Virus record (IMG/VR): IMGVR_UViG_3300023210_000012 | Length of the DNA: 56,751 nt | Direction: 5' to 3' (one strand) | Source: an uncultured virus (IMG/VR IMGVR_UViG_3300023210_000012) | Lineage: Duplodnaviria > Heunggongvirae > Uroviricota > Caudoviricetes | In this document: positions 3,365-54,604 of the stretch, piece after piece | Layout: each line of letters begins with the position of its first letter | Numbering within the stretch: the first letter of the stretch is position 1 | Made by a program: the position numbers and the translations under genes | Notes under the pieces: generated by a model | The model's database searches: none | The model's input: the letters and a program-made list of their open reading frames with translations, nothing else | What the model was told of the DNA's origin: nothing

Positions 3365-6300
3365 CTACGGGAGAGCTTGCTCCGTGGATCCGAACGAGAC
3401 GGTGCACTGATCGCCGTCACAGTACTTCGGTGTCGCGTCGATGTCGTGTCCGATTCCAGTGAAGCTGGTTGAACTGAGTTTAGCCGCAGCTTCTTTGTAG
3501 GTGTCCACATCGATCGTGATGTATGGCGCCTGCTCATACCCATGATCGTTCAATGGGAGGAAGGACACCGTCTTGAGTCGACTCTCATAGAGCTCCAGGC
3601 AGCGCTGAACGTCGTCGCCCTCTTCGGGCTTAAACGAGACAGTGATGGAGACACTGTTGTCAGACCAATACTTCTGTAGCTTGGCCGCGTTTTCCATTTG
3701 CTCCCAGATGGAAACATCGGACTTGCCGCGCTCAAAGAGCTCGGCTTTGATGGGGAAGTAGATGACCGAAGTGCGGCCCGACTTGTCGTAGACGTCTTGC
3801 TCCACGCGATACCCAGCATTGCGGTATTCCTCCACTAGAGGGCTGTGAGCCGCAATCCGCACCGTACGGAAGTAGTATTCCGCGTGTTCGTAATGGATAC
3901 CAGGCGTGACTCCAGGTAGCAGCGATGTAGTCCCTGCGGGCTTGACCGTGGTGGTCTTGATGGATTTGCGAATGCAAAGCCATTCCGAGTAGAGCCGATC
4001 CGTCTTTTGGATGTAGTTGTAGCCCCGATCGCACCACTCGAAGTGCCGACGGCGCCCGTGGCGCTTGAAGCTCTGGACGATCCCAGACTGGCTCACACCT
4101 ATCCGCCGGTTGCGGAGCGTGACCATGTTGGTCTTGGGGTTATGCGTCGGGATAAGGGACACCGTCTTCGCGTAGAGGTAAGCGAACTTGAGGGTTCGCT
4201 CGAATTCCTCGTAGGAGGCGTGACGTGATGGGAAGGTCTCAACCAGGTTGCAGAGTTCGTTACTCTCCAAACTGATCTCGGCGCATGGGTTGAACCCGAG
4301 GACGCGGCTGTCCTCGCGAAGCTCGCCCATACGACCATACTTCCGGGCGTTATCCATCCACATGTAGCCCGGCTCACCGGCCTTAGCTGCGATTGCGGCC
4401 GTCTCGGTGTAGTCCATGCCGACATCAGCGAAGATTGAGTTGTTGGACGCCCACCGGTGGCTCTTCATGGCCTCTGAGTTGACCTTTGGGTTCTTAAGGT
4501 TGAGGAACTCGGTGTCGTCCTTCTCGCCGAACATGATAATTGCGGTCCGACGGACGTTACCAGCGACCACACAGACGCCCACAAGGTCGCACAGATCAAC
4601 GATCGCCTCAGAAGTGATCGGTTGGTCAATCAGGGCATTCAAGATGCGCTGCACCTCCTCAATGAGGCGAATCAGCGGATCCGGCCCGGACGCTGTCCCG
4701 CCGAAGCCTTTGATGAGAGCCCCGTAAGGGCGGACCTTGCTGTAGTCGATGGACTTGGGAAGTGAGCCGTTGCCGACGTATGCCTCCAGGATGCGGAAGA
4801 GTAGATCGACCCACCCTTCGCGGGTATCCGCGACGACGTGGACGTCATCACCTTGGACTGGTCGCTGAATGACAACCTTGCCAGCGCCACGGCAATCACT
4901 CCCGACGCCGACGCCGAGCATAGAAAAGTCCATGAGGTAGCAGAAGGGCTCTGCGAAGGCGAGGTCGATCTCGTTGGTGCTGACGAACGCGCAGTTACCA
5001 GTCAGGATGTTATCCGCCAGCGCAAAGGCCCCGTAACCATCTACGGTAGCACAGAAGACCTCTTCGACAGCGTTGGTCTTCTGCACATCAGACACGGTCC
5101 AATACCTAGATGAGGCATCGGAATTGGCGGCGAAGTTGCGCCGGTGTTCATCGACTAGGAAGAATTTCTCGCTCAACGTATCTCGCATGAGTGTCAGGCG
5201 ATACATGGTTGATTCTCTGCCCGTCAGGTTTGACTCTCTAGTCTGCTCAGAGATGGAGTAGCTCCCCACGCCGAGGACGGCGCACACATCTTTCACGAAG
5301 AGGATGTTTTCGCGGATGCTGCTCGACAGCGATACCTGACCCTGCTTGCTTACATTCCCATCAGCCGCGAGATAACCGGCCAACCAGCCGAAGAGGAAGG
5401 CCTTGTTCTCCCGAATCGATGGCAATTCCCGGAAACTATTGGGGATCCCAGCTACTCTGATCGCCCCGCCATCGGACACCTCGGGGGCGTCGGTAACTGC
5501 ACAATGTGAGAAGAACTTAGCCAACTGTTCATCCTTCTCACCGCAGAGGTACAAGCAGTTAGCATTTCGTTCACCGGGAATGGTGGTGCCATCTCCGAAA
5601 GCGATTCCGTGCGCGATGCCGAACGCCGATGGCTTGACGTTCTTGATCCCCTGCCCAAAGACATACTGGAGGCGATGAACCTCGGGCCGGAGGTTCTCGG
5701 TCGTGAACTCCGAGTGTCCCTTGTCCCGGTGCGCCTGTCGTCGATCCTTGGCAAACCAGCGATGGTCGGGAGTGGCGTAGATCTCCTTCTCCGCGCCTTG
5801 ACGCCTCAGCGTTACCCTCATCAGTTTCTGGTGTCCAAATGACCGAACTGGAGCGTCGACCCACTTGCCGCCCCGCGTCAGCAGCGTCTGGACTGTCCCT
5901 GCACAGTCACCGATCTTCTTGATCCCGTCAGCGGTGATGATCTCCGTGTTGTATCCGAGGCAGTTGTTGAGCGCAGCTGACCCGTGCTTTTCCACGTAGT
6001 CGGTGCCCATCATCCACAGCCCACGACCGCCAGGGAGGAACTTGAAGTCCCACATGAGCTCGAACATTATCTGGGCGCTGCGCTGGGCCTTGGAATCGAG
6101 CCACGGCAGGTTGAGGCGGAGGCAATGCGCCTTCTGGACCGTGTAAACGCCGTTGACGATTCGCTCTAGGCACTGCCAGAACTCTTCCGTCTCCAGGTTG
6201 TCCTCGCTGAGGGGACGTGCGTAAGTCCTTTTGAACGTGAACTTTCCGACTGGACCCCACTCAGGCTCTTGTCCCTCAAACTTAGCCAGGAACTCCGGGG

Positions 6301-6385
6301 CTAGCTTGAAGCGGTCACTGTCTCGGATGTTGAGCACGGGGCGTTGAACGGCGTTTGAATAGTAGGATTTGGTCCCGAAATCCAT
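3365..6385 (-). CDS. nrdJ: Class II (adenosylcobalamin-dependent) ribonucleotide reductase, RTPR-like, interrupted by an intein
   Basis: FKRTYAR, PGGRGLW, NNCAF (split by the intein), GNVRRTA, FNPCAEI active-site loop, TVKPAGT, C-terminal CDGDQC. Confidence 0.93.
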   Translation of the reverse strand: MDFGTKSYYSNAVQRPVLNIRDSDRFKLAPEFLAKFEGQEPEWGPVGKFTFKRTYARPLSEDNLETEEFWQCLERIVNGVYTVQKAHCLRLNLPWLDSKAQRSAQIMFELMWDFKFLPGGRGLWMMGTDYVEKHGSAALNNCLGYNTEIITADGIKKIGDCAGTVQTLLTRGGKWVDAPVRSFGHQKLMRVTLRRQGAEKEIYATPDHRWFAKDRRQAHRDKGHSEFTTENLRPEVHRLQYVFGQGIKNVKPSAFGIAHGIAFGDGTTIPGERNANCLYLCGEKDEQLAKFFSHCAVTDAPEVSDGGAIRVAGIPNSFRELPSIRENKAFLFGWLAGYLAADGNVSKQGQVSLSSSIRENILFVKDVCAVLGVGSYSISEQTRESNLTGRESTMYRLTLMRDTLSEKFFLVDEHRRNFAANSDASSRYWTVSDVQKTNAVEEVFCATVDGYGAFALADNILTGNCAFVSTNEIDLAFAEPFCYLMDFSMLGVGVGSDCRGAGKVVIQRPVQGDDVHVVADTREGWVDLLFRILEAYVGNGSLPKSIDYSKVRPYGALIKGFGGTASGPDPLIRLIEEVQRILNALIDQPITSEAIVDLCDLVGVCVVAGNVRRTAIIMFGEKDDTEFLNLKNPKVNSEAMKSHRWASNNSIFADVGMDYTETAAIAAKAGEPGYMWMDNARKYGRMGELREDSRVLGFNPCAEISLESNELCNLVETFPSRHASYEEFERTLKFAYLYAKTVSLIPTHNPKTNMVTLRNRRIGVSQSGIVQSFKRHGRRRHFEWCDRGYNYIQKTDRLYSEWLCIRKSIKTTTVKPAGTTSLLPGVTPGIHYEHAEYYFRTVRIAAHSPLVEEYRNAGYRVEQDVYDKSGRTSVIYFPIKAELFERGKSDVSIWEQMENAAKLQKYWSDNSVSITVSFKPEEGDDVQRCLELYESRLKTVSFLPLNDHGYEQAPYITIDVDTYKEAAAKLSSTSFTGIGHDIDATPKYCDGDQCTVSFGSTEQALP
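4994..5962 (-). mobile_element. Intein (323 aa) with LAGLIDADG homing endonuclease in nrdJ
   Basis: Starts CLGYNTEI, block B ATPDHRW, motifs GIAFGDG and LAGYLAADG, ends LTGN before extein Cys. Confidence 0.92.
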
Positions 6386-29631: not shown

Positions 29632-30759
29632 CTAGTTGACGACCAGTTCCACGACTATCTTCTTGGCGTAGTAGTTGATGAGGCTATGACTCACGCCTAG
29701 TTCTTCTGCCAGCTGCTTCTGATTCAACCCTGCAGCGAGCTTCGCTGGAATAGACGCGATCTGCTCTTTAGTGAGCTTCGCGTTGCCGTGCTTCTTGATG
29801 AGATTCGGCAGGTCCCAACTCTCACCACGAAGTACACGAGATATCTGGGTAGGAGTCACGCCATAATCTGCGGCCAGGCGCTTCCCGGTTACTCGCTTCC
29901 CTGAGTCCAATCCCTCTTGATACCGCGCACGGATCCTCGTGACCTGCTGGTAATCCAGCTTCGACATCCCGTGCTTGGCGCCGCGAACCCGGCACTCAGG
30001 CTTAGTGTATGCGCCGTTTTGCGGCCCGCGTGCGGCTCGACTAGGATCCCTCCGCATGGGATGGCTCTCACCTCGTAGAACCTTCTCCGGATGCCTACGC
30101 GTCCAGTGGTCATCGCCAGTGGGCGCCGTCTGACCACCAGAGGCATCGTTTGCAAGAAGGTTCAATCCTATTGAACTAATGTGCTCGACTTCGAGCTTGA
30201 GCGCTTTGGACTCGGTGAGGTTCTCGGCGATCCTATGCTCAACGGGCTTGAGACCGGCCGCAAGTAGCTTGCGGATGATCGCGAACTTGTGCCCCTTCTT
30301 CCCGGACTTAGCCTTCCGGATGTGAGCGTCAACTCGTGGTTGCTGACGATCTGACCCCTTGCCCACGTAGAACACATTGTCGGTGTCTGGCCGGATCAGT
30401 TCGTAGACGTAGTAGACCTCTGCTTTGTCCAAATATGGCGAGTTGGGATCGGTTTTCTGGTGGACACGAGGCCGAGTGGACCCGTAACGGGAGAGCTGAA
30501 CTCCGTGCTGTTCCCGTAGCTCGTTCACCAGCTTCTTAGCTGCATTTACGTGCAGATTCTCGGCGATAGCTAGGTAGCACAAACTAAGGCCTTGTTCGAC
30601 CAAGCGTCTGACCACTAAATGACGTTTGCTGTTACCGCCACGCCTTGTATCCGACAAAAGCCTGTTGAGCGCGTATCGGCCGTTTCCAGACTGCTTCTCT
30701 CGGCCAACGTAAATTACTGCGCCATCAATTGGATTCTTGATAACTACGACTCTGTACAT
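29632..30759 (-). CDS. Free-standing GIY-YIG homing endonuclease with NUMOD/HTH DNA-binding repeats
   Basis: YYVYELIRP...FYVGKG, a second degenerate N-terminal GIY-YIG, RGESHP and RGAKHGMSKL repeats, C-terminal HTH. Confidence 0.85.
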   Translation of the reverse strand: MYRVVVIKNPIDGAVIYVGREKQSGNGRYALNRLLSDTRRGGNSKRHLVVRRLVEQGLSLCYLAIAENLHVNAAKKLVNELREQHGVQLSRYGSTRPRVHQKTDPNSPYLDKAEVYYVYELIRPDTDNVFYVGKGSDRQQPRVDAHIRKAKSGKKGHKFAIIRKLLAAGLKPVEHRIAENLTESKALKLEVEHISSIGLNLLANDASGGQTAPTGDDHWTRRHPEKVLRGESHPMRRDPSRAARGPQNGAYTKPECRVRGAKHGMSKLDYQQVTRIRARYQEGLDSGKRVTGKRLAADYGVTPTQISRVLRGESWDLPNLIKKHGNAKLTKEQIASIPAKLAAGLNQKQLAEELGVSHSLINYYAKKIVVELVVN

Positions 30760-31342: not shown

Positions 31343-32176
31343 TTAAAAAAGGCGAACGCCTGATCCCTTTAGGACGCGAGCGTCCCAAATCTCGAACGGA
31401 ATGTGGGGATACTGTTGGCAGAAGAGTTCGATTTTCTCCTGCTGCCCAGTGGGCCACCATCGGCCCTTGACGTCCACAACAGCCTCCAGCTCTCCGCACG
31501 TTGCGTAGATCCAAAAGTCTGGCGTGTAGGTGGCGACACCATCATCTACGATGACTGTGTATTTAGCTTTTTCGTAGTCCCAAGACTTCCCAAGCAGGTC
31601 CAAATGCTGGGCAACTCGTAGCTCCCAGAGAGACTTGAATGTGAAGGCGCGACCGCAGTCATCAGTCCACGTGTGGAAGCCAGGGCGTTTCCTAATCTTC
31701 GCTCCCATACGCCTGAGCTCGACGAGAATGCGCTTGTGGAAGACGTCAAAGTCTTCAGCAATAGCGCCTGCCGTCTCTCCGGCCTCATACCGATTCTTAA
31801 CGCTCTGCAGCTCAGTCGCAGAAAGCTCTCGCTTTTTGTAGCGCGTTTGGGTTCCCGTCCTTTTCAGGATCGAGGAGATCGCTGACTGGCTTGTATTCCA
31901 GGTTCGGGCTAATCCGACCTGAGTCTCGCCCTCCAGGTAAGCATCAATGATCTGGTCTTCTTGATCGTCCGTCCATCGCCGGTTTCGACAGCCAGTCACA
32001 TCGCGGCACACGCCTGCGGTATGGAGTACCTTGTAGACCTGGTCAACTCCTACATCAAACTGCAGAGCGATTTTAGGACCAGATAGGCCGAGCTCATAGA
32101 GACGCACCGCTTCGGTCCGCTGCTTGGAATCCAAGCTGCGGCGCCGCTTGCGCTGCTTCTCAACTGCTCTGGCCAT
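31343..32176 (-). CDS. Putative free-standing endonuclease: three HTH repeats plus a PD-(D/E)XK nuclease domain
   Basis: Repeats LYELGLS, AYLEGET, RYEAGET; FKSLWE...YE...YTPDF...DVKG. Confidence 0.8.
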   Translation of the reverse strand: MARAVEKQRKRRRSLDSKQRTEAVRLYELGLSGPKIALQFDVGVDQVYKVLHTAGVCRDVTGCRNRRWTDDQEDQIIDAYLEGETQVGLARTWNTSQSAISSILKRTGTQTRYKKRELSATELQSVKNRYEAGETAGAIAEDFDVFHKRILVELRRMGAKIRKRPGFHTWTDDCGRAFTFKSLWELRVAQHLDLLGKSWDYEKAKYTVIVDDGVATYTPDFWIYATCGELEAVVDVKGRWWPTGQQEKIELFCQQYPHIPFEIWDARVLKGSGVRLF

Positions 32177-42431: not shown

Positions 42432-45365
42432 TTAGACCGACGCCTGCGAACTAGCAGTGCCAGCTGGCTGAGACAGCGTGAAGATCACGAACTCAGCTGG
42501 CTTGTTCGGCGAGAAGCCAATGTCGATCAGGACCTTGCCCTGGTCGATCGTCACCGAGCTGTTGTTGTTCGCGTTGCACTTGATGAAGAACGCTTCTTCC
42601 TGAGTGTTCCCGAAGAAGTAGCCCAAACGGAAGAGCGAGCTGTAGTAGCCCCGGAGAGCCGTTTCGATCTTCTGCCAGAGTGCCGGTCCGTTGTTCTCGA
42701 ACACGGTCCACTGAAGCTGCAACGACGTGGTGTACATCAGGAAGTTGTTGAGGAGGCGAGCATTGACGTAGCGCCAGCGCGGCTCCTTCGACAGAGAACG
42801 AGCACCGTTGATGATGAACCCCGTAGCCGCAGTAGACGGCAGCGGGTTGACCCTAGACTGGTAGAGGTTGTCCTGGTCCAAGCGAGTGAGCTTGAACTCA
42901 GGTCCGACCGTTCCAGCAGCGTCCAGCGCTCCATCGACGACACCGGCAGGTGACTTGCCGATGTTCTTGTTCCGAGCCGTCTTCGCGATCACGCCTGCGG
43001 CAAAGCCACTGGCGGGAATGAGCTCGGGCAGGTCGGTCGAGTCGTTGATGAAGTAGACGTTCGGGTAGTAGATAGCCGCGTTCTTCGTGTTGAAGGCCTG
43101 GGTCACCAGCACATACTGGATCGCCTCGGGCACCGTAGTGCCGTTAGCTAGCGCGAAGAGCGCGAACCTATCTTGACGGGCATCGCAGAAGTCTACGATG
43201 TCTGCCTGTACGAACGCTGAGCCCTCGAAGTCTGGCACCACCACGTTAAGAGGTTCCTCAACGAGATCCAGGGCGTAAATACCCGTCTTGGTCCCATCCA
43301 GCGTCGGGTTCGATATCTCGTTCCGCGAGATAACCGTTCCATCAGTTCCACCAGTCATCTGGAACTGAATTGCGGACGACAGCTTGGTGTATGACGCCGT
43401 GATCGGTGTCGCAGCCGGTGGCGGCGAAACCCAGGTGAAGTCCAAGGCTCCAGTAGCGTAGTTGATTGTGTTCGTGCCAGTGGCATCAACATCACCAACA
43501 ATCGCGCCCAGGCCGTTGTCCTCGGCATACTGACCAGTCTGATACCAGGAATTGATAGTCGAGCCCGTGAGGGGCGCGAACACTGTCGTCATCGAGACGG
43601 CACCAGTATCAGCGTTGATCGTGGACGTAGCCGTCACGTCGCCGAGCAGGTTTCCAGTCGTGTTCGACCAGACGTTACCGAGGCAGACGTAGTCGAGGAA
43701 GAAGAACGTCCCCGCCAGAGGAGCCACGAGAGTCGTGACCTCGATCAGCCCAGAGCCAACTGAAAGGTTGGTTGCGCTGTCGGTCAGGTCGATCAGGTTA
43801 ATTCCAGCGCCATCGATAGATCCGAGGAGAGGGACATCCTGTTCCACTTCACTGGCGTAAGCCAGATCGACCGTTCCAGTTCCAGGCCCATCGGTCGTGA
43901 AAGCGCCTGCGATGAACGGGCCACCTGTGACACCGCCCACCTTCCATACACTTCCCAAAATGGACAGGATCGTTCCTGTTACACCACCCTGAGAGACGAC
44001 GTTACCAACGATGTTGGTGCCACCAAGGCCACTGACCTCAAGGGTCTCGACGGCGTCCTTAGTGATGAGGTTGGAGACGGCGTGGTTAGCGTCGACATCG
44101 GAAAGCGCTACGAGCGGCGCCGTGATACCGGTCATCAAACCAGAAGCGTAATCAACGGTCCCACCGAGTGGGAGGGAGCCACTGCCGCCGGTCAGATTAC
44201 CAGCACCGTCATCGGTGATAGTCGCCAGGCCAACGCCATCAACATTCACCGAAATGGCGAGCGTTCCTGGGTGAACTTCTGTGGACGACAAGGCCACGCC
44301 TGACAAGTCATAGACTGCGGCCACACCACCAGTGGTCGACAGCGTCTGAGTCACGGCCGCAGAGCCAGCATACTTCAGGCTGAAGCTGGTAATTTCCTGG
44401 TGGACCGGGTTGTCCACAACACCAGCGTTGAAGGTGAAGACCTTGTTGACGCCGTCTACGAGACCAGCGCTAGCAGGAAGCACCTCGTTGGTGAGAAGCT
44501 GCTTCTGGTAGAAGACGCGGGCTGAGCCCTCAACCACTGGAAGGTTAGTAAGCTGGAGCGTGAAAGCTGTATCCGTGCCGTTAATCGTTCCGGTCGTAGG
44601 AGTGTGGGCCAGGAACTTAGTCGTCCCGGACACCGCAATCAACTTCAACGTGTTCTCCAGAACAGGTACGTTCTGGATAGTCGTTGTGAATTGGGAGGCA
44701 AGAGGAGCCCCACCACCAGTGCCCACTGACTCGGCTAGTACGGTGACAGGGAGCATCCCTGAAGGTACGCCACCTACGCCAATGGTCGTGGTGACCAGGA
44801 GACTCGGACGGCGGGGGTCCGCAATCACGTTCAGAAGATAGTCCGGAGCAGCCGGATCATCGAACTGAATTGCCTCGTAGGTTTCCACAGCATCATCGAA
44901 CGCCGGGTTGAAGTCGGCGGGGGCGAGGATCTGGAGATCGTACTTGTCCCACGAATTCGTGGTGAAGTTGAGGAAGTTCCTGTTTCCGCTTACACGGATT
45001 TTCAGGTCGTTGCCCCAGAGACCCTGGCCGTTGGCCGTAAAGGTCCACTTCTCCGGTCCGGGAGTGTCATCGATGGCCACCGACGCGAAGGTCGAGTCGG
45101 CGGGTGCGATGCGGTTAACCCATGCTCGCTCTCCACCAGTTCCGAAGAACCCACGAATCTCCTGAGGAACTACACCGCGTGTGTTGGACGGACCGAACAC
45201 ACGAGTAAAGTCCTCAACCGAGCGGATCTCGATTGGGAAGTTGGTGGGGCCCTTCTGGGTCCAACCGACGATGCCCATTTTTGCGGGCGAGAACTGATCA
45301 GGGGCACGTGCTGGAGCCTTCTCCTGGCCGTAAACACCTGCTGACCGATATTGAATAATCGGCAT
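42432..45365 (-). CDS. Contractile tail sheath protein
   Basis: SAGVYGQE, GWTQKGP, AAIYYP, WRYVNAR, VFENN, GF.PNKPAEFVIF. Confidence 0.93.
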   Translation of the reverse strand: MPIIQYRSAGVYGQEKAPARAPDQFSPAKMGIVGWTQKGPTNFPIEIRSVEDFTRVFGPSNTRGVVPQEIRGFFGTGGERAWVNRIAPADSTFASVAIDDTPGPEKWTFTANGQGLWGNDLKIRVSGNRNFLNFTTNSWDKYDLQILAPADFNPAFDDAVETYEAIQFDDPAAPDYLLNVIADPRRPSLLVTTTIGVGGVPSGMLPVTVLAESVGTGGGAPLASQFTTTIQNVPVLENTLKLIAVSGTTKFLAHTPTTGTINGTDTAFTLQLTNLPVVEGSARVFYQKQLLTNEVLPASAGLVDGVNKVFTFNAGVVDNPVHQEITSFSLKYAGSAAVTQTLSTTGGVAAVYDLSGVALSSTEVHPGTLAISVNVDGVGLATITDDGAGNLTGGSGSLPLGGTVDYASGLMTGITAPLVALSDVDANHAVSNLITKDAVETLEVSGLGGTNIVGNVVSQGGVTGTILSILGSVWKVGGVTGGPFIAGAFTTDGPGTGTVDLAYASEVEQDVPLLGSIDGAGINLIDLTDSATNLSVGSGLIEVTTLVAPLAGTFFFLDYVCLGNVWSNTTGNLLGDVTATSTINADTGAVSMTTVFAPLTGSTINSWYQTGQYAEDNGLGAIVGDVDATGTNTINYATGALDFTWVSPPPAATPITASYTKLSSAIQFQMTGGTDGTVISRNEISNPTLDGTKTGIYALDLVEEPLNVVVPDFEGSAFVQADIVDFCDARQDRFALFALANGTTVPEAIQYVLVTQAFNTKNAAIYYPNVYFINDSTDLPELIPASGFAAGVIAKTARNKNIGKSPAGVVDGALDAAGTVGPEFKLTRLDQDNLYQSRVNPLPSTAATGFIINGARSLSKEPRWRYVNARLLNNFLMYTTSLQLQWTVFENNGPALWQKIETALRGYYSSLFRLGYFFGNTQEEAFFIKCNANNNSSVTIDQGKVLIDIGFSPNKPAEFVIFTLSQPAGTASSQASV

Positions 45366-45368
45366 GAC

Positions 45369-45671
45369 TTACTCCCCGCCGCCCGAAGGCTGCTTTTTGG
45401 TTGACTTCTTGGACTTCTTGGCCACGGCAGGAGTTGGAGCTGCCTTAGCTGGCTGAGACGATGACGCTACGTCGATCTTCTTGGCAAAGGTCGGGATCTC
45501 TCGATCAGTGACCTTGCGGATCGAGTTGTTTCGCAAGAGGCGGGCAACTGATGCGTTGGTTGGGTGCGAGGTGAACATGAACCCTGCTGGGTAGCTCACG
45601 ACGTTACCGTTCGCGAATTCCACCGTGACAGCGTTTCGTGACACCACTTGATAAGTCTGATCGCGTTTCAT
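45369..45671 (-). CDS. Small protein upstream of sheath sharing the fibre N-terminal module
   Basis: TYQVVS...VSYPAG..F....NASVARLL. Confidence 0.72.
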   Translation of the reverse strand: MKRDQTYQVVSRNAVTVEFANGNVVSYPAGFMFTSHPTNASVARLLRNNSIRKVTDREIPTFAKKIDVASSSQPAKAAPTPAVAKKSKKSTKKQPSGGGE

Positions 45672-46534
45672 TATTGACTCCCGTAAACGCCCGATCGGAC
45701 GATTGGTTTGCCTGTGCCGTAGCTTCCGCCAACACCAGGATCAGGATCACGTTCACCACCAGGGCAAAGCGGGATCCCATTAGCATCAGCAGGAACAAGG
45801 CCGTAGCCGCCAGGCCCTGGAACGAGCTGGTAGCCCGGTCCACCAACCCCAGGAAGGGGTTGATCAGTAACCGTGCCGGTGAAGGCTGGTATACAGATAG
45901 GCTCTTTGTCCAACGTCAGCTCCGCTTCGACCTTTACAGATAGAGAGTACCCTGGGATACGCTCCACCAGAGAGCTTACATCAGTAAGGTCGTCAACGCC
46001 CTGTTGGAATGTGGCATAGACGCGAGGATTATTGATGCCGTCGACGACGGTCACAGTCCCCCGGTGGGGAAATCGCTTCATCATCATTTGCAGCAGGATT
46101 TGTGCAACGGTGCGAAACCGGGCCCAGCATTCAATGGTGTAGAAAAAGTCGTATGGCTGCTCTTTGTCCTTCTGCTCGTAGGAGGTCCACCCTAGACAAC
46201 CGCCAGCAGAGACCTGCTGTGCGCCCTCGCAGGGGAGGCGGTAAGAGACTACAGGAGTGAGAAGTCGCTCTTCGGACGGTGTCGTAGAGTCACGAATGAT
46301 TGCGATCATTGGGACTGTCGCACTGATCTGCGTCGGTTCAGGCCTCTTGTAGACGACCAAAGCCCGGTCAATAGGCTCCTGGCGCCCATCGATGCGAACG
46401 AAGATACCTTCAAGCGGTAGGTAGTATTGGTTCTTTGCAGTGTCCGGTAGCGCCCCGAGTCCCCTGACCAGGGCCTCATCGAAATCGTAGAAGTCTACGT
46501 TTCCAGTACGCTCACCAAACTCTAACCCAGCCAC
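45671..46534 (-). CDS. Putative tail terminator / completion protein
   Basis: Position before sheath; VPMIAIIR and PYDFFYTIECWA resemble gp15-like proteins. Confidence 0.55.
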   Translation of the reverse strand: MAGLEFGERTGNVDFYDFDEALVRGLGALPDTAKNQYYLPLEGIFVRIDGRQEPIDRALVVYKRPEPTQISATVPMIAIIRDSTTPSEERLLTPVVSYRLPCEGAQQVSAGGCLGWTSYEQKDKEQPYDFFYTIECWARFRTVAQILLQMMMKRFPHRGTVTVVDGINNPRVYATFQQGVDDLTDVSSLVERIPGYSLSVKVEAELTLDKEPICIPAFTGTVTDQPLPGVGGPGYQLVPGPGGYGLVPADANGIPLCPGGERDPDPGVGGSYGTGKPIVRSGVYGSQ

Positions 46535-46641
46535 AAACTCCCCTATCGCATCAGGTCGTAATGATAACTGTTGACCTTAGAGCTAGTCGAGGGTCCACAG
46601 CACTATTAGGTGCTAACAAAGCAATTGATGCGCACTAGAGG

Positions 46642-46671
46642 TTGACCCTGTCAGCAACGAGTGCGTAGACT
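46642..46671 (+). promoter_or_regulatory. Putative sigma70-type promoter for tnpB, probably leaderless
   Basis: TTGACC-18 nt-TAGACT ending 6 nt before the ATG; no SD visible. Confidence 0.55.
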
Positions 46672-46677
46672 GGTCTG

Positions 46678-47793
46678 ATGCAGAAAGTGCTTCCACTTAG
46701 GATTGCCAACGACGCTGATCTTATGGCAACAATTGAGTCATTCAGACTCATCCAAGAGCGCGTGTCTGAGATTGCGTTTGAAGACGGAACCGCGCTTTCC
46801 GCAGTAGATATGCATCAGCTCAGCTACGCAAAAGTGAAAGGCTCTCTGAAATCTCAGCTCACATGCACTGCTATTCGATCGGTGGCATCTGAATACTCAC
46901 GCGCTCGGAGGAGAAACCGGAGGATATATGGGCCGATTCACTTCAGTAAGCCACGCGCCCTATTCTTGATCGGCAAGGCAAAGCGCGATGCCTGCCCACC
47001 CCGTAAAGAGACGATCAGAATTTGGACAATTGCGGGCCGTAAGGACATACCTTGCAGCATTCCAGCCCGGTTCGAGGCTGACTATAAAAACGTGAAGTCC
47101 TTCGACACACTCGCGGTCTCCCTTAAAAGGGGACGACTCGTAGCGACCGTGTCCGTGACTCTTAAAGAATCAAAACGAGAAGGAACCCTTCCTGCTGGCG
47201 TTGCAGTAGGGAGTAAGAATGAAGTAGCAGCGGTAAGCGCCGAGGGGAAATCTCTCCGAATCGTCACCGTTGCTCAGAATGTAATGGAGGAGACAAGCCG
47301 AAAAACAAAGAGAAGACTTGAGCGGCGACTGGCTGTGCGTAAGGCAGATGGACTTGAGACGCGTTCTGTGCGTCGAGTCCTCAAACGGCTAAGCAGACGG
47401 CGTCACATGCGAACTAGGACTTTTTGCCACGCAGCAGCTAACCGACTCGTTGAGTGGGTTGGAAGCGGATCAATCCTCGTCATCGAGGACCTTCGCATCC
47501 CTCCACCTTCGAAGAGGAAAAGAAGCAAGCCATCGATGAGGCCGCACTTCTATGAAGTGCTTCGTCGTAGGATTGAAGAGAAGGCTGCGGCTGCGGCGAT
47601 ACCGGTTTATTACGTGAACGTATCCGGTAACGAGAAGAGGTGCTCGCTTTGTGGAGCTTCTGGGAGCATCACAAAACACACCTTCCTCTGCGATTCGTGT
47701 GGCAACGAAAGTCCGATGAGCAAGAATGCCGCGCTCAATGTCAGGAACAAATTTACGGTCACCAGGCCGTGGGCTGCTGTTAACCGGCCTTGA
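46678..47793 (+). CDS. tnpB: TnpB (IS200/IS605) family protein, predicted nuclease-dead (TldR-like)
   Basis: RuvC-I GVAVG (D to A176), RuvC-II LVIEDL intact, CSLC/CDSC zinc finger, RuvC-III SKNAALNV (D to S348). Confidence 0.85.
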   Translation: MQKVLPLRIANDADLMATIESFRLIQERVSEIAFEDGTALSAVDMHQLSYAKVKGSLKSQLTCTAIRSVASEYSRARRRNRRIYGPIHFSKPRALFLIGKAKRDACPPRKETIRIWTIAGRKDIPCSIPARFEADYKNVKSFDTLAVSLKRGRLVATVSVTLKESKREGTLPAGVAVGSKNEVAAVSAEGKSLRIVTVAQNVMEETSRKTKRRLERRLAVRKADGLETRSVRRVLKRLSRRRHMRTRTFCHAAANRLVEWVGSGSILVIEDLRIPPPSKRKRSKPSMRPHFYEVLRRRIEEKAAAAAIPVYYVNVSGNEKRCSLCGASGSITKHTFLCDSCGNESPMSKNAALNVRNKFTVTRPWAAVNRP

Positions 47794-47851
47794 AGCTCGT
47801 CATCGGGCAAGCGGTTTTGGCCGCAGTTGACTAAAAGCTATTTTTCCCTAT
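47760..47851 (+). ncRNA. Candidate omega-RNA 3' scaffold plus guide
   Basis: Hairpins AGGCCG/CGGCCT, GCTCG/CGGGC, GCGG/CCGC, then AGTTGAC; 5' boundary unknown. Confidence 0.5.
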
Positions 47852-48540
47852 TGCTGCTTGTCAAAGTTCTTGGCAAACAGTTCAAGCGCCTCTTTACCGA
47901 ATCCAGAGGAGTTCATAATTCTGTCTCCCTCTGTTTCGAGTCGGTTCCAGATTGGCAGACGTGGGAACCCTCCGAGGCCATACTCCATTCGGAGGGCTAA
48001 AAACGGGACATCCGCCAATGTGCGGCCGTTTATGACGGCTAGTTCATTCGGCTGGATAGGCCTCCTAAGCCTGCTCAACGCCGTCTTTAGCTCGGTCGCA
48101 TTCGATCGATGTCGTCTTCGGTGGAAATCAGTCTCGGACTCAGAAGCTGGTCTAACGATCAACTCTGTAGTGATTCCATCTTTTACTGACGGGAGCGTGT
48201 CAACGGTCCACGGGTTCTCTGTGGCCATTAGCAGCGCCACATCATCACCACCGGTGAGCCACAATAAAGTAGTGTCGGCTTCGAGATCGCCGTAGTTCAG
48301 TTCGATGATCTTCGCTACTACATCATACTCATCTGGGCTAATCTCATCCAACTGGATGCTGTCTCGGTAGATGTCGTACCAACCGCCATCATTAGGGATC
48401 ATATCCCTAACACGTTGTGCCGTTTTTTCAGCCAGCTCTCTAAGAGAGTTCCGCCCTGCCTCTTTAGCAGCCGCAGGAATGCTCGTCTTCAAGTTTTCGA
48501 TGCTCTTGCGAAGCTCTTCGTCATCGACGAAGAATTTCAC
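47848..48540 (-). CDS. Putative neck / head-tail morphogenesis protein
   Basis: Overlaps the portal stop; ALRMEYG...PIW resembles HK97 gp10-like proteins. Confidence 0.5.
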   Translation of the reverse strand: MKFFVDDEELRKSIENLKTSIPAAAKEAGRNSLRELAEKTAQRVRDMIPNDGGWYDIYRDSIQLDEISPDEYDVVAKIIELNYGDLEADTTLLWLTGGDDVALLMATENPWTVDTLPSVKDGITTELIVRPASESETDFHRRRHRSNATELKTALSRLRRPIQPNELAVINGRTLADVPFLALRMEYGLGGFPRLPIWNRLETEGDRIMNSSGFGKEALELFAKNFDKQQ

Positions 48541-50816
48541 TTAATGCGACGTCGTCGATGACCGCCGCCCTGAGGGGCTGAGATCAGACCGCCGTTCCCG
48601 TTCCGGGAGAATGCGGCGTGCTTGAACTCGCGGAAGAATTGCTGTTGATGGGCGAGCTGTGCGGCCATCTGCTTATTACCGACAATGACCTTGTGCATTG
48701 TGTCTTGAATCTCTTGATCACGCTGCCGGGACATGCGATCACGTTTTTCCTCAATGCGCCGCGCCCTATCGTAAGACTTCCACTCCGACTTACTGTCTGG
48801 TCGACCCCCAGAGCCCGGTGGTGGGCCGATCTCAGCGTTTCCTGGGTGCATTGGAGCGTCATCTGGCGGAGAACCATCAGCAGCAGGAGCGCCGCCACCA
48901 CCGCCATCATCACCTCCGCCCATAGCCTGTTGCTGAGCAGCTTCCTTCTTTTGATCCTCTTCCCGCTCCTTCTCGATCCGCTCTATCTGATCGCCGGTCA
49001 GTTTGAGAATCTTCTCCTGGATATAGCGCATTGAGACAAACGGCTGGACTCGCGTTGCGAAGTCAGCTCTCGCGTTCTTGATCTCGTTGTGCGCCAGCTC
49101 ATAGATCCCGGACGGGACCGTCATCATCACCTGAAGGTCTTGCCTGAAGGGGTTGATCCCTCGGGCCGCAAGATCGATCTGAATCAGACGACGAATGCTG
49201 TTCCTGACCTCGCGCTGGATTCCCATCGTGACGCGTGCGGACCGCACATCCTCGTAAGAGAGGATCGATCGGGCTGGGATGCCGTCGTCTTGCCCTAGAT
49301 AGTTCCTGGGGATCTTCAGGACGCCGTGTAGCTTCCGCTGGAAGTACTCCACATCCTCGGTCGCCTGATAGTCAGGGCCTTGGAGAACCTCTACACGGGC
49401 TAGCTCGCGATTTTCGCGGACCGCGATGAAGAAGTCCTGAAGGTTGTCCATCGGATTCATACGCATGTCGAGGCGCTGGGTCCTCGGGTTAACAAGTTTC
49501 TGCTTCCGCAGGTCTTGCTTGGCTTTGCGTAGGAAGGACTCCACCTTGTCAGATGGAATATCGGTGACGTCGATGTAGAAGGCGAACCGGGCTGGAGCTC
49601 GGGTCAGCTTGTAGATGAGCATCGAGTCTTCGAGAAGAACCAGTCTCTTCCAGATCCAGCGAGCTCCATCAGCCACACCGAACCCGTATGGAGTTCTGCG
49701 GGCCGTGCCACGAAGGCGCGTATGTAGGACTTGCCACTCCTCGAACAGGGCGACGTGGTCCGGGACCTTAGCCTGACCGGCCAGCATCCCGCGAAGGTCC
49801 GAGGCGTCCTGCGTGAACTTCCCAGTGATGTCCTGGACGTAACCAATGATCGAGCCATTGGACTGCTCGACACGGCGCATGGTGGGGCAGGGAAGAGAGT
49901 TGAGGCCGACAACGCCGTTATCAGTGATCAGCACCTCCTCGTAGTTATTGCCCATCTTCACGGTCGTGTAGACCATGGACCAGATATCGTCTTCAATTCG
50001 TAGCCGCTTGTTGAGCAGCACGTCCGACATGCTCTTGATAGCTTCGTCGCTAGAATGGACCCAAACGGTTTTTCCGGTGTCAATATCCGGCTGGGTCGCA
50101 TCGTTTGTGAAGTAGTGGTGGGCGCTGTTATGGACAACAATCCCATTAGCGATGAAGTTGTGGGTCTTAGTTGTGACGTCGTAGACGTCTTCGACCCCAG
50201 CCGGAATCGCGGCCTGGGTCACCTTCAATCGGCCTGATGTTGAGTGCAGAAAGGCGGTCATTCCTGTTGGGTCAAACCCAGACCAACAAGAGACCACAAC
50301 CGTTCCCTCGACTAGATCAGAGGCATTGATGTAATCGTGCTCGACCGTGAGGAACTTGTGCCCAGGGGTGCACTTGATTTTCTCACCATTGCTAAACCCG
50401 ACCTCAACCACCTCCTGCTTATCGCCAGAAATGCGAGGATTCTCAGACGCCACTACGACGAGCTTGTCCTTCTCTGTGTCGTAGGCCAGGATCTTGGGGC
50501 CACCGCCGTGAGCAGCTAGGTCGTGGATCCTAGTGGGCTTGATAATGGAGTCTTCAACCACGTAAATCGTAGTATCTGCAGTGAGACAGTTGATGTCCGG
50601 ATAATCATCCATCTGCTCATAATCTGCATACCTGTCCATCAGGTTCTGCGAGACGCTGAGTAGTCCGCCGACGTCTTCTCGGCCCCATACCGAGAAGATG
50701 GATGACGGGATGTGCTTCTCGGCCTCGGCCGAGGGAGATTCAGCCCGATCACGCTCGGCGCGTTCACGGCCGAATACCTGGCGCAGGTAGTTTAGCGCAT
50801 CGTCGCGAAGTGCCAT
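48537..50816 (-). CDS. Portal protein (T4 gp20-like) with a mini-intein
   Basis: WKRLVLLEDSMLIYKLTRAPARFAFYIDV, EDVEYFQRKL...LKIPRNYL. Confidence 0.92.
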   Translation of the reverse strand: MALRDDALNYLRQVFGRERAERDRAESPSAEAEKHIPSSIFSVWGREDVGGLLSVSQNLMDRYADYEQMDDYPDINCLTADTTIYVVEDSIIKPTRIHDLAAHGGGPKILAYDTEKDKLVVVASENPRISGDKQEVVEVGFSNGEKIKCTPGHKFLTVEHDYINASDLVEGTVVVSCWSGFDPTGMTAFLHSTSGRLKVTQAAIPAGVEDVYDVTTKTHNFIANGIVVHNSAHHYFTNDATQPDIDTGKTVWVHSSDEAIKSMSDVLLNKRLRIEDDIWSMVYTTVKMGNNYEEVLITDNGVVGLNSLPCPTMRRVEQSNGSIIGYVQDITGKFTQDASDLRGMLAGQAKVPDHVALFEEWQVLHTRLRGTARRTPYGFGVADGARWIWKRLVLLEDSMLIYKLTRAPARFAFYIDVTDIPSDKVESFLRKAKQDLRKQKLVNPRTQRLDMRMNPMDNLQDFFIAVRENRELARVEVLQGPDYQATEDVEYFQRKLHGVLKIPRNYLGQDDGIPARSILSYEDVRSARVTMGIQREVRNSIRRLIQIDLAARGINPFRQDLQVMMTVPSGIYELAHNEIKNARADFATRVQPFVSMRYIQEKILKLTGDQIERIEKEREEDQKKEAAQQQAMGGGDDGGGGGAPAADGSPPDDAPMHPGNAEIGPPPGSGGRPDSKSEWKSYDRARRIEEKRDRMSRQRDQEIQDTMHKVIVGNKQMAAQLAHQQQFFREFKHAAFSRNGNGGLISAPQGGGHRRRRIK
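50127..50588 (-). mobile_element. Mini-intein (154 aa, no endonuclease) in the portal
   Basis: CLTADT start, CTPGHKF block B, VYDVT...HNFIANGIVVHN end, +1 Ser. Confidence 0.92.
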
Positions 50817-50857: not shown

Positions 50858-51586
50858 TCAGGCCGGGAGGTCCAGGAACACACCGGATATGGACAACGAG
50901 CCCATAGTTCGGACAGATGCGGTAAAAACTTCGTCTAGCCGACCAGGCGTAGATCGCACCACCTTGTGGTTGGTCTTCTTCTTTGGTTTGACGATTTCAG
51001 CCATCAATGGGCTGGCAGCAGCACACTCGTTGAAGAGCGCGTCCGCTGCGCCTACCGTCTTGACAGCGATGTTCTTGTGGGACCTCTTGGCCTTCTGTGC
51101 GTCGAAGTATATCCGGAGATTATCTGGGTGATAGTTTTCTCTGTTCCCATCGATGTGCTCAACGTAGGTGCCCTTTTCTAGGGCATGGCCAAGCACCCAT
51201 TCCGCCATAAGTCTAGATATTTTCTTTTTTACAGCGTGTCCTGGGATCTGATAGGTCGGATAGCCGTTCGCGTTTTTGGCTAAGTAAAGCGGCAGAAGCG
51301 AATCCCCAGGACTCAGCTCCGGGGGCATCTTCGTGGAGCCATTTTTGAGAATGAACTGTGAGGAGGGGGACACTTTAACGAGTGAGCCATCATCAAGTTC
51401 AACATCGAAAATCTGTTGTTCGCCGATTGACCGGAAGTCAAACGCCTCAGTTACGAAGAGGCGTGAACCAGTCCACGTCAGCACCACCACAGAAAAATCT
51501 GGGTTTAGGACAGTCTTATTGGCTAAAACGCCGATTTGGACCGGTCCAGAGGCTGTTTCGATCTGCATCTCAGAGAGAAGGCCCAT
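50858..51586 (-). CDS. Free-standing degenerate intein-like (Hint) protein with an internal HNH motif
   Basis: Hint-like blocks without C1, block B His or terminal HN; HIDGNRENYHPDNL. Confidence 0.72.
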   Translation of the reverse strand: MGLLSEMQIETASGPVQIGVLANKTVLNPDFSVVVLTWTGSRLFVTEAFDFRSIGEQQIFDVELDDGSLVKVSPSSQFILKNGSTKMPPELSPGDSLLPLYLAKNANGYPTYQIPGHAVKKKISRLMAEWVLGHALEKGTYVEHIDGNRENYHPDNLRIYFDAQKAKRSHKNIAVKTVGAADALFNECAAASPLMAEIVKPKKKTNHKVVRSTPGRLDEVFTASVRTMGSLSISGVFLDLPA

Positions 51587-53402: not shown

Positions 53403-54260
53403 ATGGAGCATCAGGATCATTCTACAGAGAATGGCGCTTCAGGGCACCTTATCTCTCCCGTAACTTCTACGACCTCAAGCGGAACTCCGTCGTTTCGGGT
53501 ATACAAGGATATGGGAACGGAGACATTCGCAAACGGTCAAGTGAACTACAAGGCTGCAGACGGTTCGACAAAGAACTGCCTTGATTCGCTAGATGACGAC
53601 GAACGATACAAATACGGGTGCCGCTGTGGCTGCACCGCAGTGTTCAGTGGATTCGGCCGTGACATCAAGGCTGCCTTCAAGGTCGGCCAGTCCACCTTTC
53701 CAGCCATCCAGGCGCTCGCCGCCGGAACCAACAACGTGCTCTACGATGCTTCGACCGGCGCTGTGACGGTGACGACCGGAGGCCACACCGCCATCGAGGG
53801 CGATATTGCCGAGAAGATGAGACAGGACTTCGCAGAAAAGATCCGGCCATTCGTCTCCGACAGATACATCAAAAAGGCCGTGTTCGGCCTTACAGATGAT
53901 GAAATCGATGCGGACCACGCTGAGAACCCAGAACAAATGGAGGACGTGAAGCTCTCCGACCGCCAGCCCCCGGCCATTAGCGACCTAGTCTACTCACTGG
54001 CCACCAACGAGGGCCCATACACCCTCGTGGACTACGCCAGGAAGAAGATCAAGCTGGATGATGGCTCGGAGCACGATGTGTTCTGTGGGATCGTGCGGAC
54101 CGACAAAGGTAAGCACATCAGCATTCCTCTGGCAGACCTTGCCCTGCACTGGGCAGAACGGCCAGTAGTCGAGCCCAAGAAGCTCCGAGTGGGCCTCATG
54201 ATGGTCGCCTCGTCAGTCATCGGGTCGGCGATCGGCATCGCCTGCTATCTCTTCCTCTAA
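53403..54260 (+). CDS. Hypothetical protein with a C-terminal transmembrane helix
   Basis: 285 aa ending VGLMMVASSVIGSAIGIACYLFL. Confidence 0.7.
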   Translation: MEHQDHSTENGASGHLISPVTSTTSSGTPSFRVYKDMGTETFANGQVNYKAADGSTKNCLDSLDDDERYKYGCRCGCTAVFSGFGRDIKAAFKVGQSTFPAIQALAAGTNNVLYDASTGAVTVTTGGHTAIEGDIAEKMRQDFAEKIRPFVSDRYIKKAVFGLTDDEIDADHAENPEQMEDVKLSDRQPPAISDLVYSLATNEGPYTLVDYARKKIKLDDGSEHDVFCGIVRTDKGKHISIPLADLALHWAERPVVEPKKLRVGLMMVASSVIGSAIGIACYLFL

Positions 54261-54604
54261 GGGAGAGTCCCGGCCCTACGGTGCTTCGTGTAGTGCTTCG
54301 CGCACAGACCACGAGCTCTAACCTTCGTATCGCAATCTAGCTCTGCGCACAGCTTCTTACCGGTCATGTATTCACGATCTGGCCGCAGTTCCCCGTAGAG
54401 TTTGATCTGTCGGGCGTGCTTTCTGCAGTGACCTCCGCTGGCCTGCCCTGAAGTGCAGCCAGTGGCATCGCATTCCTTAGGTCCACCCCGCTCTGATTCC
54501 AGCGTCAGGTGTCCGTGCCTCAAAATCTGCATGTAGTGGCGTTTACAATACCCGCGTGCATAACCCAAACGCTCGCAATGTTCGACGACACAGTAACCAG
54601 TCAT
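54257..54604 (-). CDS. Triple C-x4-C...C-x2-H zinc-finger repeat protein
   Basis: CVVEHC..CKRHY, CDATGC..CRKHA, CAELDC..CAKHY. Confidence 0.75.
   Translation of the reverse strand: MTGYCVVEHCERLGYARGYCKRHYMQILRHGHLTLESERGGPKECDATGCTSGQASGGHCRKHARQIKLYGELRPDREYMTGKKLCAELDCDTKVRARGLCAKHYTKHRRAGTLP

Follow-up and report, generated by a model that had tools for sequence, protein, structure and literature searches.

The window analyzed here is a stretch of 56,751 nucleotides from an uncultured virus (IMG/VR record IMGVR_UViG_3300023210_000012) and belongs to a large myovirus from seawater/marine metagenomes. Its structural module harbors a gene derived from TnpB whose product is without two of the three canonical RuvC catalytic residues, and this gene and its relatives are best read as encoding a new TldR-like protein that binds DNA by means of a guide RNA and is passed on vertically. 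The gene and the elements that surround it are the following (all positions are those of the window):

46678..47793, + strand: TnpB-derived, TldR-like open reading frame (ORF) with Ala176 and Ser348, Glu270 and the zinc finger being kept (alignment, AlphaFold, Foldseek)
47702..47831, + strand: omegaRNA-type guide-RNA scaffold that overlaps the last ~30 codons of the ORF and ends at GTTGAC, with four stems in ~47755-47831
47832..47851, + strand: candidate guide with a variable position 1, invariant positions 2-9 and the rest antisense to the 3' end of the neighboring ORF g230
46642..46671, + strand: sigma-70-like promoter TTGACC-18-TAGACT that ends 6 nt before the ATG and is a conserved block in 14 loci
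46535..46641, no strand assigned: intergenic stretch, conserved, corresponding to the former element's "left end" and without a hairpin of the IS200/IS605 type

The ORF is full length with 371 amino acids. We aligned it to solved TnpB and Cas12f chains in two ways, as a single protein and as a 34-sequence profile, and found with HMMER that AGVAVG lines up with AGVDLG/VGVDLG, VIEDL with AVEDL, and SKNAALNV with DENAALNI/ADRNASFNI. Both alignments put Ala176 (GCA, 47203-47205) at the RuvC-I Asp position, Glu270 (GAG, 47485-47487) at the RuvC-II Glu, and Ser348 (AGC, 47719-47721) at the RuvC-III Asp, so that both Asp are replaced at their canonical positions while the Glu is kept, and the intact Asp-Glu-Asp triad of an active TnpB is missing. 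A first-pass annotation, made from the DNA sequence alone, had named exactly these residues in a full-length ORF with an intact zinc finger, which the codons and the alignments to solved chains bear out, and none of these alignments places a catalytic Asp elsewhere. The cysteines of the zinc finger CxxC..CxxC (C322, C325, C338, and C341) vary little or not at all among the 59 aligned homologues described below. The AlphaFold model of the protein (predicted local distance difference test score, pLDDT, of 90.6) has its top Foldseek matches over the whole length in Cas12f and TnpB ternary complexes (E 1e-16 to 1e-10), and a structure of dCas12f with guide RNA follows at rank 19. Model, Foldseek matches, and a Pfam PF07282 match (E 1.3e-8) agree on the TnpB/Cas12f-type fold expected of a TldR, with WED, REC, RuvC, and zinc-finger/TNB parts. 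Generic TnpB clusters were the sole protein-atlas matches.

A protein search over 5.8 billion proteins returned 64 homologues, and 59 of them were aligned after fragments of 235-318 amino acids had been left out (P0027, P0028, P0037, P0045, and P0063). Both RuvC Asp are absent from 34 of the 59 aligned proteins, the Asp-Glu-Asp triad is present in 22, and the remaining 3 are without the first Asp only. In a quick maximum-likelihood tree, the 34 proteins with double Asp loss are monophyletic (Shimodaira-Hasegawa-like approximate likelihood ratio test, SH-aLRT, 100; stem length 0.62), and their sister is a group of 9 composed of six Asp-Glu-Asp proteins and three missing the first Asp. All 34 members of this dead clade have Ala or Ser at position 176, Ser (once Gly) at position 348, and Glu270, so that the mutation of at least two triad residues that characterizes TldRs is conserved across the whole clade. 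These proteins are 58-100% identical over their full length and share many invariant Arg and Lys residues in helices 198-261. A HMMER search over 1.84 billion representatives added 686 relatives at E up to 0.001, none of them closer than the known set. In the searches made here, the dead lineage was seen on phage contigs only, carried by related large marine myoviruses, and it is absent from the GTDB species genomes searched.

The nearest Asp-Glu-Asp relatives are 32-40% identical to the window protein. These relatives of the phage lineage are scattered across archaea and several bacterial phyla, including proteins at 37-39% identity from Methanoculleus (L113 and L116), Patescibacteria (L114), and Chloroflexales (L115 and L117). 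Three syntenic sisters (L008:5139-6260, L009:5735-6856, and L033:7-1110) carry a substitution of the RuvC-I Asp (to Ser, Asn, or Gly), retain the RuvC-III Asp, and have a longer last scaffold hairpin; they look like an intermediate state of inactivation.

The frames are open throughout 27 loci, with no internal stop in any of them and some truncated by contig ends. We measured selection on 11 dead-clade genes, all full length and non-redundant (55 pairs), in which the proportion of nonsynonymous differences (pN) is 0.085-0.238 and that of synonymous differences (pS) is 0.52-0.85. A finite dS was obtained for 38 pairs, and their ratio of nonsynonymous to synonymous substitution rates (dN/dS) lies at 0.063-0.175; the remaining 17 pairs are saturated. 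Such ratios at near-saturated synonymous sites exclude neutral decay, and together with the absence of internal stops they indicate that the gene has been maintained by selection after its inactivation, as expected of a TldR.

Constraint of a different kind becomes apparent at the 3' end of the gene. Third-position identity in codons for the same residue is 0.37-0.56 along the gene, apart from a value of 0.69 at codons 221-240, and 0.87 in its last 12 codons, and synonymous sites are frozen from codon ~349 on. The last ~110 nt of the gene and the 38 nt 3' of its stop make up a structured RNA that is almost without variation; the conserved sequence breaks off sharply at 47840, where the contig of one relative also diverges. 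In one locus (L025), a point change puts the stop 3 codons upstream and within the conserved stretch, which argues that the constraint acts on RNA or nucleotides. RNAalifold predicts 21 pairs in 4 stems from a 26-sequence alignment, with compensatory changes in 11/21; 98.2% of the cells are paired as compared to 27-46% with partners slid by 1-3 columns, none of 500 shuffles reaches the observed values, and the G-U pairs fit the + strand. Ten distant Asp-Glu-Asp relatives share this architecture—hairpin, hairpin, GAAGC-stem-GGGCAAG, hairpin, and YTGAC, with longer third and fourth stems—and it is because the scaffold is shared with them, with compensatory changes, that we assign it to the omegaRNA type.

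The analysis also extended to the full 134.7 kb record of this phage (G000; 48% complete according to CheckV) and to a 203.5 kb relative (G001; 89% complete). The covariance model R1 recovers the scaffold at 47702-47831 with 123.9 bits (E 6e-30) and finds a single copy in each of the two genomes, adjoining the gene, with no orphan copy in these 338 kb. A comparison of 46400-48100 to Rfam gave no matching family (E up to 1). The adjacent, conserved guide-RNA scaffold that belongs to a TldR is thus present as judged from sequence and covariation. Synonymous sites are also more conserved than elsewhere (0.63-0.69) at codons 221-240 (47338-47400) in an Arg-rich helix, where either another RNA element or codon usage may be the cause; the contig of one relative aligns at the nucleotide level only at 47258-47413 and 47719-47845.

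Directly behind the scaffold, the octamer AAAAGCTA at 47833-47840 (positions 2-9 of the candidate guide) is identical in 13/13 dead-clade loci, and three sister loci have AAAAACTA or AAAATCTA instead. These invariant 8 nt are placed exactly at the guide start of relatives, and in distant relatives the sequence after YTGAC varies by locus as expected of a guide read from flanking DNA. In the window, AAAAGCTA is distinct from the stop codon of g230 (47848-47850) and out of frame with it. Past position 9, the candidate guide is pyrimidine-rich and antisense to the variable C-terminus of g230.

At the other end of the former element, a left-end hairpin is discernible in two distant relatives (z -2.2 and -4.1) and absent from the window (z -0.8) and from L008 (z -0.4). 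No Y1 transposase and no serine recombinase were found in the 134.7 kb, 48%-complete record, in line with the annotation's earlier remark that the window has no tnpA. The loss of transposon ends and of a TnpA association that is typical of TldRs is therefore seen here as the lack of these enzymes from that record, of the left-end hairpin, and of any second site, and the two end hairpins and multiple or mobile copies of an active TnpB element are replaced by a hairpin-free left end and one copy per genome at a fixed site. The promoter TTGACC-18-TAGACT had been proposed from the start and is present at 46642-46671 as a consensus match; in the region, 2 promoter-like sites were found as compared to 0.9 expected from shuffles. 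Because this promoter ends 6 nt before the ATG, the mRNA of the gene is probably leaderless. An inverted repeat, GCGCACT..AGTGCGT, flanks the promoter and has a family-wide counterpart in distant relatives, CCACTAG..CTAGTGG. Across the family (window 46630-46677; distant relatives, e.g., L043:1900-1952), the inverted repeat brackets the -35 hexamer and the spacer, and 6-7 nt separate the -10 hexamer from the ATG. This layout suggests mRNAs without a leader and a hairpin serving as operator or insulator. A loose pattern, C[AC]A[TC][CAT][ATG]A[AG], occurs upstream of the ATG in 21/34 distant loci. Most of its matches are of the CCAY..AA type, 100-150 nt upstream of the ATG and beside the left-end hairpin, the window counterpart being GCATCAG; as a clue to the target-adjacent motif (TAM), this pattern may serve as a lead only.

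The neighborhood of the gene consists of the following features:

42432..45365, - strand: tail sheath protein
45671..46534, - strand: g287, a conserved ORF of the structural module, downstream of the divergent promoter
46561..46590, - strand: divergent sigma-70-like promoter TCGACT-18-TATCAT facing g287, with hexamers in invariant blocks and a variable spacer
47848..48540, - strand: g230, a rapidly evolving ORF that runs toward the TnpB-like gene (convergent), possibly a neck protein (synteny, fold match)
48537..50816, - strand: portal protein of the T4 gp20 type, split by an intein

The TnpB-like gene lies on the + strand and everything from sheath to portal on the - strand. The first-pass annotation had placed the gene inside the head-tail operon, which is correct for the structural module, but the opposite orientation keeps the gene out of the operon's transcript. 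Its description of the neighbors as neck and tail-completion genes is suggested by their position between portal and sheath and by a weak match of the g230 model to a SaPI1 neck protein (Z 5.2), but neither g230 nor g287 has a match in Pfam, PHROG, or PDB sequences, and Foldseek gave none for the g230 model at E up to 0.001. Identity of g230 is 24-47% where that of the sheath is 47-81%. Between phages with ~70-83% identical sheath and g287, g230 is 36-47% identical; it adjoins the old insertion point.

The order sheath-g100-g287-[gene]-g230-portal is found in the same orientation in 11 of the 18 viral loci (L001-L010 and L018, with 70-100% sheath identity), and several short metagenome contigs fit the same g287-[gene]-g230 slot. 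All dead-clade loci with DNA occupy this slot, antisense to both flanking structural-module ORFs. The other 7 viral loci, at 32-39% identity, have no neighbors in common. In the outgroup phages L107-L110 (g287 45-48% identical), g230 is directly followed by g287 without an insert. Shared slot and insert-free outgroups argue for a single entry at the g230|g287 junction followed by inheritance with the phage. Contigs of four marine DNA runs over 45400-48800 have no joint that skips the insert, which does not show that empty sites are absent.

The modules of the window further comprise, besides the intein-bearing portal and the tail sheath, a clamp loader, a ribonucleotide reductase that contains a LAGLIDADG intein, and ORFs of the HNH and GIY-YIG types. 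The rest of the 134.7 kb record (55.8% G+C) encodes replication functions (a family A polymerase with inteins, a DnaB-like helicase, a primase, and a RecA-like protein) as well as thymidine and deoxynucleoside kinases, methylases, a baseplate gp25, and a T4-type prohead protease, and no integrase-type family was detected among the scanned ORFs of this incomplete record. Homing elements are unusually abundant in this phage genome. The intein of the portal (Intein_splicing) covers residues 87-229, and in the relatives L003-L009 the portal is split by more inserts of 1.3-2.5 kb elsewhere, some of them HNH-like. The ribonucleotide reductase with its LAGLIDADG domain lies at 3365-6385 (-) of the window, and the family A DNA polymerase of 1645 amino acids has intein-splicing and LAGLIDADG domains, with a second intein-bearing ORF of 869 amino acids (L132:3417-8351 and L133:10111-12717). 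Free-standing GIY-YIG/HNH-like ORFs with helix-turn-helix domains are found at 29632-30759, 50858-51586, 54257-54604, and 31343-32176 (all -), across structural and replication modules.

We read the window gene as a domesticated TnpB, a TldR-like and non-cutting RNA-guided DNA binder that became fixed and is vertically inherited in a lineage of large marine myoviruses, and on balance we consider this reading probable. Domestication, which the first-pass annotation had proposed, is strongly supported because the monophyletic double Asp loss, the single syntenic slot, purifying selection, the conserved scaffold, and the lost left-end hairpin all point to it; tree, synteny, and dN/dS, which had been named as checks, gave one clade in the same slot under constraint and no frames in decay. 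The additional proposal of an RNA-guided repressor has fared less uniformly: Its foundation in domestication holds, but the two genomes offer no TAM-flanked guide match, and acidic residues near the old active site leave room for a rewired nuclease. RNA binding, DNA binding, and repression by the window protein are inferred.

The proposed history begins with a tnpB-only element of the IS200/IS605 type that would have inserted into the stretch separating the stop codon of g230 from the ribosome-binding site of g287. This element would then have lost its TnpA-recognition hairpin and become immobile, and one clade of it would subsequently have lost both RuvC Asp. From the host-type promoter at 46642-46671, a probably leaderless mRNA would be made, and its 3' part (47702-47831) would serve as the guide-RNA scaffold bound by the protein. 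The guide beginning at 47832 (conserved 9 nt N-AAAAGCTA) may form an R-loop on TAM-flanked complementary DNA without cleavage, and this R-loop could block RNA polymerase as is the case for TldR and Cas12m.

Several observations weigh against this interpretation. A second, TAM-flanked match to the guide was found neither in G000 (48% complete) nor in G001 (89% complete). Our scans used exact 11-mers, the 8-mer AAAAGCTA, and mismatch scans in G000 as well as a pattern search in G001, and all matches stayed at the level of chance. No 12-nt match to the guide at up to 2 mismatches exists in G000, and none of its 16-nt matches at up to 4 mismatches is convincing; controls with reversed patterns gave 3+1 matches versus 2 observed. 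The 8-mer AAAAGCTA occurs 2 times with 1.4-1.8 occurrences expected and is neither enriched nor depleted, so that we also rejected the idea of its depletion. A 9-nt guide match at a gene start in G001 compares to 1.55 such matches expected by chance. With no target found in the phage itself, its host or rival phages would most likely provide the target, in the form of a conserved site. Other points concern the protein and the shape of the evidence: its NCBIfam guided_TnpB score of 66.4 bits is under the curated cut-off of 100; the dead clade has gained invariant acidic residues at E182 (Ala in active relatives), E204, and E72, with E205 also in some sisters, and those near the old active site make a rewired nuclease possible; activity may have been lost gradually, as the three syntenic sisters with DNA miss the RuvC-I Asp only; and the guide past position 9 doubles as g230 coding sequence, so that conservation there is not cleanly readable.

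Two further sequences came up in the search for targets. G001 has 13 consecutive bases of its own candidate guide at L112:1501-1516 (G001:C1:4983-4998), inside an ORF for a helicase-like protein of 623 amino acids; in front of these bases stands CAGTT, as it does at the element's right end, and no orthologue of this ORF was found in G000 or in three other records. The likeness of the left flank GTTGACCTTAGAGCTA to the right end and guide (GTTGAC-TAAAAGCTA) was considered as a self-target or target duplication and dropped, as it is not conserved in other loci.

Among the alternatives, we regard as unlikely a role without any guide, in which protein and RNA would stabilize or process the transcripts of convergent g230 and of the gene itself, or in which the insert would be kept as a promoter of g287 and the tail genes. 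This is what the promoter-like site facing g287 inside the conserved left end may hint at, given that its hexamers are conserved and its spacer is variable, and the candidate guide antisense to the 3' end of g230 and the lack of a DNA target in G000 and G001 are in line with it. However, a promoter needs no ORF of 371 codons under a dN/dS of ~0.1, the entire TnpB fold is conserved including REC, WED, and zinc finger, and the invariant 8 nt begin exactly where the guide of relatives starts.

It seems rather improbable to us that the protein is a rewired nuclease that still cuts DNA via relocated carboxylates (E182, E204/E205, E270, and D271) and homes between co-infecting phages by cutting relatives without the insert. 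In the AlphaFold model, E182 opens strand 182-186 beside strand 169-177 that bore the Asp, and E204 lies close to the start of the helix that comes after strand 3, which is the topological place of the catalytic Glu in RNase H1. Position 182 is acidic in 34/34 dead-clade proteins and in 0/22 Asp-Glu-Asp proteins, E204 is invariant in the clade, and the genome is rich in homing elements (inteins, HNH, GIY-YIG, and LAGLIDADG); the 2023 TldR preprint warns that apparent inactivation can be spurious. Nevertheless, two of the three canonical residues are gone at once, and with the insert already present in every close relative seen there is little left for homing. The model has a hairpin with a 4-residue loop that pairs 182 with 177, so that the side chain of 182 should face away from 176, and we know of no relocation of a RuvC-I Asp. 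Positions 204/205 are Lys, Arg, or Asn in active relatives, and Glu-Glu is more like a charge reversal that keeps DNA out, which fits DNA exclusion at least as well as a rebuilt metal site.

As a long shot, a homing nuclease may have turned into a weapon that only binds, with the dead ribonucleoprotein occupying the empty g230|g287 junction of a rival and blocking late transcription into g287 and the sheath. The guide would match this junction in any close relative free of the insert because, by descent, it is the sequence after the insertion point. If so, the rival would be starved of tail parts without a double-strand break that would copy insert and immunity into it, the loss of cutting would be explained as selected in the interest of the phage and against that of the element, and the system would be a natural interference between virulent phages in the manner of CRISPR interference (CRISPRi). 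That the locus is an inert relic, a dead selfish element yet to decay, might appear from its lost catalytic residues, TnpA, and end hairpin and from the lack of a target, but it is hardly credible with no internal stops in 27 loci, a dN/dS of 0.06-0.18 at pS 0.52-0.85, dead proteins 58-100% identical at full length, and a nearly invariant RNA scaffold, and saturated synonymous sites rule out that the loci are recent copies of each other.

A domesticated, TldR-like TnpB in this place would mean that a separate TnpB lineage was tamed inside the structural module of marine myoviruses with their own replication genes, and the clade is further evidence that RuvC-dead TnpBs arise repeatedly. A clear natural series leads from mobile Asp-Glu-Asp relatives with end hairpins via syntenic copies without one Asp to the clade that lost two. 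If the protein binds DNA through its conserved 9-nt guide, it would be another compact natural RNA-guided repressor, which a phage could possibly use for host takeover, for the timing of its own late genes, or in competition with other phages.

The systems most similar to the window gene are the TldRs themselves. According to the TldR preprints of 2023 and 2026, the three characterized clades are associated with prophage fliC_P, csrA, and oppF, 506 polyphyletic TldRs are catalogued, the oppF-associated TldR uses a 9-nt guide, and another published clade is phage-borne. The published TldRs control genes of the host for flagellin or peptide transport or genes linked to CsrA, and those carried by phages reside in temperate ones. 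The window gene shares with them the TnpB fold with mutated RuvC Asp, the lost transposon ends, and the adjacent 3' conserved guide-RNA scaffold, and its short conserved guide parallels the 9-nt guide of the oppF clade. It differs from the TldRs described there as a separate lineage in the structural module of replication-autonomous large myoviruses, not beside fliC, csrA, or oppF, without a partner cargo gene or a C-terminal truncation, with a guide that overlaps the end of the neighboring gene, and with no promoter target found in the two genomes scanned. We found no literature report of a RuvC-dead TnpB in the structural module of a virulent-type phage, and the lineage is possibly present among the 506 catalogued TldRs.

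With TnpBs of tnpB-only IS200/IS605-type elements (e.g., ISDra2), the window gene has in common the fold, an omegaRNA that overlaps the gene at its 3' end, and a guide from flanking DNA. With its nearest Asp-Glu-Asp relatives, it also shares the stems of the scaffold, the YTGAC at the scaffold's end, and a promoter accompanied by an inverted repeat. Unlike the mobile elements with their multiple copies, it is without two Asp and the left-end hairpin and sits at one fixed, vertically inherited site. T4-like homing endonuclease genes (Seg and Mob) are similar as selfish genes wedged among conserved phage genes, here in a genome crowded with homing elements, and homing between co-infecting phages as the likely ancestral role is a concept raised in PMC13565253. 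Different from Seg and Mob, the window protein is of the RNA-guided type and is missing its canonical catalytic residues. Finally, Cas12m, Cas12c, and dCas12f with its sigma factor are RNA-guided R-loop formers that bind rather than cut, as is proposed for the window protein, and dCas12f is among its fold matches; compared to these binding-only Cas12 relatives, it has neither a CRISPR array nor an associated sigma factor and would rely on a single guide set by the flanking sequence.

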